Notes under the pieces: generated by a model
The model's database searches: none
Seen by the model: only the letters and a program-made list of their open reading frames with translations
What the model was told of the DNA's origin: nothing
Program-made: the position numbers and the translations under genes
In this document: positions 40,712-41,056 of the stretch, piece by piece
Position numbering within the stretch: the stretch's first letter is position 1
How the letters are laid out: every line of letters starts with the position of its first letter
Assembly (NCBI RefSeq): GCF_003334405.1
Contig: NZ_QOWM01000004.1
DNA: 64,000 nt
From: Escherichia coli
Lineage (GTDB): Bacteria; Pseudomonadota; Gammaproteobacteria; Enterobacterales; Enterobacteriaceae
Reading direction: 5' to 3' (one strand)

Positions 40712-41056
40712 TTATTTCATTTTACCCAGAATTGCACCACCCGTACCGCCAATCACGGCACCTTTAATCGCCCCTTCGAGGCCATTGCCGGTCAGAACGC
40801 CAGTGACAGCACCAACGGCGGCACCCACTTTTGCACCTTTACGCGCATTTTTACCGTCGCGGCCTTTTTCTGTTACTGCACCAACACCAGCGCCAACAGC
40901 TGCACCTTTCAGTACGCCATTAACACCATTGCCAGTAAGTAAACCAACGCCTGCGCCTAGCAATGCACCTTTCGTGGTGCGGTTCATATCCGCCATCGCT
41001 GGCGTGGAGCAGAACAATGCTGAGATAAGCCCGAAGGCAAGTATTTTTTTCTTCAA
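40712..41056 (-). CDS. ymgG: Glycine-zipper protein YmgG (114 aa)
   Basis: ORF 40712..41056; signal peptide then repeated GxxxG-rich blocks. Confidence 0.88.

Follow-up and report, generated by a model that had tools for sequence, protein, structure and literature searches.

The glycine-zipper protein YmgG of Escherichia coli: an old, degenerate duplication with rare in-frame length alleles

When a protein is built from repeated blocks, the question arises of whether its gene also carries a DNA repeat that can gain or lose units, and whether strains differ in length as a result. This question is raised by ymgG, a small gene found in the 64,000-nucleotide stretch of Escherichia coli DNA analyzed here (hereafter “the window”). 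The initial annotation had described YmgG, after its signal peptide, as consisting almost entirely of repeated G/A/V blocks, and had proposed that the underlying DNA repeat could drive length variation between strains. The description of the protein holds, and both of the peptide strings quoted for it are present in the translation. The proposal on the DNA has to be divided, since a repeat seen at the protein level need not mean a mutable DNA repeat where the duplication is ancient.

The identity of the gene is clear. The 345-nt open reading frame, which lies on the minus strand at 40712..41056 and ends with TAA, is 100% identical to the gene annotated by RefSeq as ymgG in many E. coli genomes, K-12 derivatives included, where the identical 345-nt gene is labelled “ymgG: YMGG-like glycine zipper-containing protein”. 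In E. coli K-12, YmgG is b1172 (UPF0757; PF13441, Gly-zipper_YMGG), and the window allele is the common 114-aa form, with no difference from it. YmgG is therefore already known as the namesake of PF13441 and as a published member of the RcsB regulon, and its repetitive make-up is implicit in the definition of the family. The genes ymgI, ymgG, and ymgD form a tightly packed run on the minus strand, with minE upstream (Table 1). The ymgI stop codon is 1 nt upstream of the ymgG TTG start (window 41056-41060), and only 3 nt separate the ymgG stop codon from the ymgD ATG (window 40706-40714). The Shine-Dalgarno-like GGA upstream of the TTG is only weak. The close packing of the three genes suggests translational coupling along ymgI-ymgG-ymgD. 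The published operon consists of ymgGD only, and ymgI is not named in it (PMC2731931; bioRxiv 10.64898/2026.06.26.734639).

Two other features of the surroundings can be described. An ORF convergent with ymgD (39256-40290, plus strand) is the C-terminal part of the ycgH autotransporter; in K-12-like genomes, the annotation treats ycgH as a pseudogene with a frameshift, and at its position in other strains the gene calls measure 773-882 aa (218 aa in locus L009). Within the ymgI ORF, the palindrome TAAGATTATTCTCA at 41201-41214 resembles an RcsAB box, with three mismatches to the consensus. It is directly abutted by a promoter match on the minus strand, with a -35-like TTCACG and a -10-like TATCAT (41173-41200). 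A scan of the 64 kb for RcsAB boxes finds matches with three mismatches to be no commoner than expected by chance. The palindrome is exact in 7 E. coli loci and altered in loci L005-L009. This palindrome may be where RcsB acts on the ymgGD promoter.

Table 1. Features of the ymgI-ymgG-ymgD locus in the window, and the in-frame length alleles of ymgG found elsewhere.
Feature	Coordinates	Strand	Extent or product	Basis or remarks
ymgG CDS	40712..41056	-	114 aa + stop	TTG start; RefSeq identical gene
ymgD	40373..40708	-	111 aa	own signal peptide; downstream gene of the ymgGD operon
ymgI	41058..41231	-	57 aa	small ORF
Terminator-like hairpin directly 3' of ymgD	40336..40360	-		9-bp stem, 7 G-C pairs, T-run
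Sec-type signal peptide	40991..41056	-	residues 1-22	sequence reading; hydrophobic N-termini in homologue alignment
Glycine-zipper domain 1 (helix, TGNG turn, helix)	40871..40984	-	residues 25-62	PF13441 E 2e-6; AF2 model
Charged linker between zipper domains	40841..40870	-	residues 63-72	sequence; charged segment at same place in homologues
Glycine-zipper domain 2	40721..40849	-	residues 70-112	PF13441 E 1.6e-7
Block 1	40931..40972	-	residues 29-42	repeat comparison
Block 2	40868..40909	-	residues 50-63	repeat comparison; hot spot of small indels (+6, -12)
Block 3	40799..40840	-	residues 73-86	repeat comparison
Block 4	40724..40765	-	residues 98-111	repeat comparison
+6 nt allele (GV duplication)			116 aa	E. 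coli; within an 11-nt repetitive stretch
-12 nt allele (one GxxxG period)			110 aa	E. coli, at least 3 backgrounds, at least 10 contigs, two junction types; 2-6 nt microhomology
-63 nt allele (block 1 to block 2)			93 aa	E. coli, 2 assemblies; microhomology GTTGGT
-75 nt allele (block plus spacer)				E. coli 08-00022, finished genome; 9-nt microhomology TAAAGGTGC
-81 nt allele			87 aa	E. coli, 3 contigs; microhomology GGTGC
-117 nt allele			75 aa	E. coli, 1 contig; microhomology TGGCGT
-150 nt allele			64 aa	E. albertii, 5 contigs, 3 over 1 Mb

The signal peptide would be cleaved at an AxA signal peptidase I site (residues 20-22), before D23. The mature protein has 92 aa, 55% of which are G, A, or V, with 16 overlapping [GAS]xxx[GAS]xxx[GAS] motifs. 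Each half of YmgG is composed of two 14-aa KGAxxGxxxGxxxG blocks joined by TGNG, and the halves align with each other at an offset of 48 aa (BLASTP, 18/35 identical residues or 51%, E 1e-7). Membership in PF13441 comes from two significant domain matches (E 1.6e-7 and 2e-6), while Gly-zipper_Omp, Gly-zipper_OmpA, and 2TM (PF05433) match more weakly. A lipoprotein reading was rejected: there is no lipobox, and the sole cysteine (C16) follows A-L-F, and the homologues do not conserve it.

The AF2 model of YmgG is all-helical and of moderate confidence (pLDDT 72, pTM 0.50). In domain 1, helices 26-40 and 45-62 flank a turn at TGNG 41-44 (pLDDT about 60-70); domain 2 is drawn as a single long helix with no hairpin. 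Each domain may fold as a helix-turn-helix hairpin, a prediction that the moderate-confidence model supports for domain 1 only. When the model (pLDDT 72) is compared to the PDB with Foldseek, nothing is found at E <= 0.001. The TraT decamer was considered as a structural relative and discarded, as its local 44-column match (E 8.7) is too weak. A search of PDB sequences using the profile of 33 homologues gives nothing beyond a marginal match (E 8e-4), to a Legionella protein of the OmpA family in its glycine-rich segment.

The repeat is weak in its nucleotide sequence. With a minimum score of 30, Tandem Repeats Finder reports no repeat at 40600-41200. A repeat search recovers four copies of 19-38 nt with 66-80% identity, unevenly spaced by 63, 69, and 75 nt. 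Whole blocks compared pairwise share 55-69% of their nucleotides, and the two hairpins, aligned over 105 nt, share 60%. The longest exact direct repeat in ymgG is 10 nt, a length reached by 62 of 1000 mononucleotide shuffles. What does stand from the “internal DNA repeat” of the initial annotation is a set of short in-frame repeats (5-10 nt) above chance, among them AAAGGTGC, with which all four blocks begin, and the 9-nt TAAAGGTGC that opens blocks 3 and 4. There are 13 pairs of in-frame 8-mers in ymgG versus 3.8 in codon shuffles (13 is reached in 4/500), and 56 pairs of in-frame 6-mers versus 30.4 (56 is reached in 2/500). The corresponding counts in ymgD are 0 and 14. The in-frame microhomology of ymgG is several-fold (roughly four-fold) above that of ymgD, with no long homologous repeat. 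The hairpins have 18 identical residues, of which 9 are encoded by the same codon in both, versus 8.0 expected from ymgG codon usage. This near-chance sharing implies that synonymous sites are saturated.

How old the duplication is can be judged from the homologues. When 1.84 billion cluster representatives are scanned exhaustively with HMMER, only 65 are found at E <= 0.001. In the 32 full-length homologues (33-81% identity), both hairpins are present in every one, and gaps in the mature part are only 1-3 residues long; the length of the mature part is maintained in sequences as distant as about 40% identity. The zipper glycines are invariant or nearly so, and G34, G38, G51, G55, and G107 are invariant in the 33-sequence alignment. 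Because all of the aligned homologues have both hairpins, the duplication is older than the whole detectable family. The two domains thus come from an ancient internal duplication, and in mutational terms their DNA copies do not amount to a tandem repeat. The conservation of length across these sequences indicates purifying selection, which acts on the two-hairpin architecture and its length.

Does the length of ymgG nonetheless vary between strains? The alleles were surveyed by BLAST in 5,426 complete E. coli genomes, whose counts serve as the denominator, and ymgG is nearly full length in 5,108 of them. The whole-gene query (345 nt) returns 5113 records in 5111/5426 genomes; 5110 of these records cover at least 80% of the query, and none is below 95% identity. 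Full-coverage rows sampled evenly down the ranking all span exactly 345 nt (39/39). A central probe of 191 nt, which spans every variant junction found, is covered to at least 80% by 5109 of 5110 records, and all 59 of the sampled rows span exactly 191 nt. For the two queries together, 98/98 sampled rows have the standard span. Only two records fall below 95% identity with the central probe (both at 90-95%). When the central region of the -12 allele is used as the query, no record reaches 95% identity, meaning that no complete genome carries this allele. The aligner bridges a 12-nt gap and identity is lowered in consequence, so the identity bands of the central probe are a valid indel detector. 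Concatenated probes of 48-50 nt each were also built across six known variant junctions, designed so that the standard allele is unable to seed. Searching the complete genomes with these probes gives one true match, the +6 allele of strain STEC711. The other 11 of the 12 matches were discarded, as they are standard alleles seeded via a SNP and aligned with gaps (77.8-78.8% identity). Finally, the single low-coverage record of the central probe belongs to strain 08-00022, in which a 75-nt in-frame deletion runs between the copies of the 9-nt TAAAGGTGC that start blocks 3 and 4. Two length variants are therefore identified in complete genomes (-75 and +6 nt), and at most two more are possible, which amounts to no more than 4/5110, or less than 0.1%. 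Indels in frame at repeated motifs do occur, as the initial annotation had anticipated, but allele length is effectively uniform and variants are very rare. Uniform length, the outcome that would speak against the proposed variation, is seen in more than 99.9% of the complete genomes.

The survey also brought out some features of the locus as a whole. Both ymgG and ymgD are missing from about 315 of the 5426 complete genomes, and genomes differ far more often in having or lacking the entire locus than in ymgG length. Twelve matches are on records labelled as plasmids. One of these, pSTEC711_1 (NZ_CP041417.1, 306 kb), bears the chromosomal segment minE-ymgJ-ymgI-ymgG-ymgD-autotransporter, which suggests that it is a mislabelled or misassembled replicon, or else a large chromosome-derived element.

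Rare alleles were sought more widely by a word-indexed search of 5.8 billion protein clusters, and the DNA of several E. coli-like proteins of unusual length was compared to the window allele. All of the length variants found are in frame and lie at a genuine ymgI-ymgG-ymgD locus (Table 1). In E. coli, the deletions that remove 63 nt or more show microhomologies of 5-9 nt, which lie within repeated KGA/GxxxG codon motifs. Slippage does occur, because the deletion junctions sit on these 5-9-nt microhomologies in repeated motifs, and we infer that the indels arose by replication slippage or microhomology-mediated deletion.

These variants might instead be sequencing or assembly artefacts, in which case allele length would be strictly uniform. 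Such a reading draws on the single-contig support for the -117 allele, and for the +6 allele in the draft set. It also draws on the small deletions of both ymgG and ymgD that are found on short contigs from ENA, where microhomology is 0-5 nt; these would be a background of the whole collection. However, the -150 allele is found in five E. albertii contigs, three of them over 1 Mb, and the -12 allele occurs in three backgrounds, with two junctions and at least 10 contigs. The -63 allele is present in two independent assemblies that differ by a SNP, and the -75 and +6 alleles are each found in a finished genome. Moreover, the exact repeats (10 nt or less) are too short to confuse assemblers. An origin of the variants in artefacts alone is therefore unlikely, and we retain slippage at in-frame microhomologies as their probable source.

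There is also a slender chance that some of the shortened YmgG proteins are functional and have been selected in particular lineages, with helices or GxxxG periods lost or gained in register. If so, the E. albertii -150 allele, which would encode one chimeric hairpin, is a natural experiment in the minimal functional glycine-zipper unit. In any event, the catalogue of rare deletions provides natural truncations for probing how many zipper helices YmgG needs.

Other observations on ymgG alleles stand apart from these indels. YmgG exactly as encoded in the window (114 aa, identical to the common RefSeq allele) is listed as missing from a 15-billion-protein collection in which the rare variants are present; this looks like an indexing oddity rather than biology. 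One ymgG allele is interrupted by IS1, and its product ends in GDAANLLI, the translated IS1 end (a cluster of 91 members). In strain KCTC 2571, the last 44 nt of ymgG remain and adjoin IS1, with umuDC-dsbB on the other side. This arrangement implies an IS1-mediated rearrangement that would have removed or relocated the region from ymgI through minCDE and beyond. Lastly, one ymgG allele and one ymgD allele have nearly identical foreign tails (DSNLLIVFYVQIMPDDFVMQLHRF and DSNLLIVFYVQIMPDDLVMQLHRF, respectively), probably because the same kind of mobile element was inserted independently into both genes.

Whether ymgG is more mutable than its neighborhood can be judged from ymgD, which is adjacent, similar in size, and repeat-free, and which was submitted to the same search. 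For ymgD, the same collection of proteins holds about 11 variants with an in-frame internal deletion (-6 to -132 nt), mostly on short ENA contigs and with an inferred microhomology of 0-5 nt. The small ymgD deletions with little microhomology may be assembly artefacts, and they warn against reading indel polymorphism directly from the protein collection. In complete genomes, the records with less than 80% coverage number 11/5111 for ymgD versus 3/5113 for ymgG. When only isolate genomes are considered, there are seven variant classes for ymgG versus two for ymgD. Because of this difference, a modest repeat-driven mutational bias in ymgG is possible, and it would match the roughly four-fold excess of in-frame microhomology. 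These searches give no sign of a mutational hot spot in ymgG relative to ymgD.

It can now be asked whether ymgG is a length-variable gene of the contingency kind, in which strains commonly differ in the number of zipper blocks. The excess of in-frame 8-mer pairs (13 vs 3.8 expected) is what such a gene would show, as are the seven in-frame indel classes seen in isolates, whose junctions lie mostly in repeated motifs, when ymgD has two. Yet no repeat is detected by TRF, and the copies are only 55-69% identical. No more than 4/5110 complete-genome records can be length variants, and length is kept across the homologue family. With all sources counted, in-frame deletions are as numerous in ymgD, and in complete genomes its alleles are more often disrupted. 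After the allele survey, this view of the gene is close to refuted, and we consider it extremely improbable. The finding on length variation is thus an ordinary one, because the DNA repeats are too degenerate for length change save in very rare cases.

What this conserved protein does has been approached in several published studies, which for YmgG itself consist of expression data, vesicle proteomics, and multicopy suppression. The ymgG-ymgD genes belong to the RcsB regulon (PMC2731931; bioRxiv 10.64898/2026.06.26.734639). A LolCDE inhibitor induces them about 25-fold, and beta-lactams and polymyxin B are inducers too (PMC5105897); they are up-regulated in a delta-elyC mutant (bioRxiv 10.1101/2024.04.10.588480). 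The sRNAs OmrA/B repress ymgG-ymgD (bioRxiv 10.64898/2026.06.26.734639). In multicopy, ymgG is reported to suppress the temperature sensitivity of lapC190 and delta-lapD, and LpxC is not raised (PMC10607373). Extracellular vesicles are enriched in YmgG, along with BamE, OsmB, and PldA (PMC11491762). On this basis, a mechanism can be proposed. By analogy with what has been described for SlyB and YfgH (10.64898/2025.12.22.696046), YmgG might help to stabilise the stressed envelope. After export, its hairpins would be embedded in an envelope membrane or rest on its surface, the outer membrane being the likeliest, and GxxxG packing of the helices would let the protein self-associate. Genuine insertion into a membrane is uncertain, since each segment has only about 14-18 residues, with Lys and Glu among them. 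The enrichment in vesicles is no more than suggestive of an outer-membrane helical hairpin forming ring oligomers, the arrangement looked for in the SlyB, YfgH, and OsmB group.

Glycine-zipper peptides are able to form pores (Kim et al. 2005, cited in 10.64898/2025.12.22.696046), and ymgG and ymgD make up a tight two-gene operon. Both points have a place in another reading, in which the two genes are a toxin-antitoxin pair, with the zipper protein acting as the toxin by damaging membranes; the designation “possible toxin-antitoxin system” is in fact used in the literature (PMC5105897, PMC10607373). The label fits poorly, because both products are exported and overexpression of ymgG rescues growth. 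The two proteins have Sec-type signal peptides, unlike classical cytoplasmic type II pairs, and it is the growth of lapC190 that is rescued, with no killing (PMC10607373). Furthermore, ymgGD belongs to a stress-induced regulon, and neither Pfam nor NCBIfam gives any match to a toxin or antitoxin family. An IS1-disrupted ymgG is found with an intact ymgD, and disrupted alleles of ymgD exist as well, with no sign of addiction. A toxin-antitoxin function is thus very improbable.

Taken together, these data make it likely that ymgG is an RcsB-induced envelope-stress gene whose product carries predicted membrane-stabilising zipper hairpins, and whose repeated structure is an old, degenerate duplication with rare slippage alleles. 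The useful results here are negative ones: an anciently duplicated protein repeat need not be matched by a mutable DNA repeat, and the length of ymgG is effectively fixed across thousands of genomes.

A comparison with known systems helps to place YmgG. Like coding tandem-repeat and contingency loci, ymgG is internally repetitive, with in-frame short direct repeats at which rare in-frame alleles arise. It differs from them in having no near-identical head-to-tail units (TRF negative), in its variant alleles remaining below 0.1% in complete genomes, and in showing no excess over ymgD. At the protein level, residues 64-112 of YmgG match locally the N-terminal zipper of YiaD and the OmpA family (NF053611, E 2e-7), and the zipper segment of the Legionella OmpA-family protein of PDB 6x65 also aligns locally (6x65_N, E 8e-4). 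However, the NF053611 score of 30.9 bits is far under the NCBIfam cut-off of 175 bits, and YmgG has neither an OmpA-like peptidoglycan-binding domain nor a lipobox. The remaining comparison is with SlyB, YfgH, OsmB, and PCP (PF05433, Rick_17kDa_Anti). SlyB, YfgH, and OsmB are anchored via a lipobox and have one zipper domain, whereas YmgG is without lipobox or lipid anchor and has two such domains in tandem, with no C-terminal globular domain. Its matches to PF05433 are weak (E 0.034 for residues 74-111 and 0.44 for residues 30-62), and YmgG is not a member of the 2TM glycine-zipper lipoprotein group. There are also likenesses to this group. G/A-rich GxxxG segments predicted as helical hairpins are found on both sides, as is induction by envelope stress, and osmB adjoins ymgGD in the RcsB regulon table (PMC2731931). 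YmgG is co-enriched with OsmB in vesicles (PMC11491762), and a membrane-stabilising role has been proposed for SlyB and YfgH (10.64898/2025.12.22.696046), to which that suggested for YmgG would be akin.
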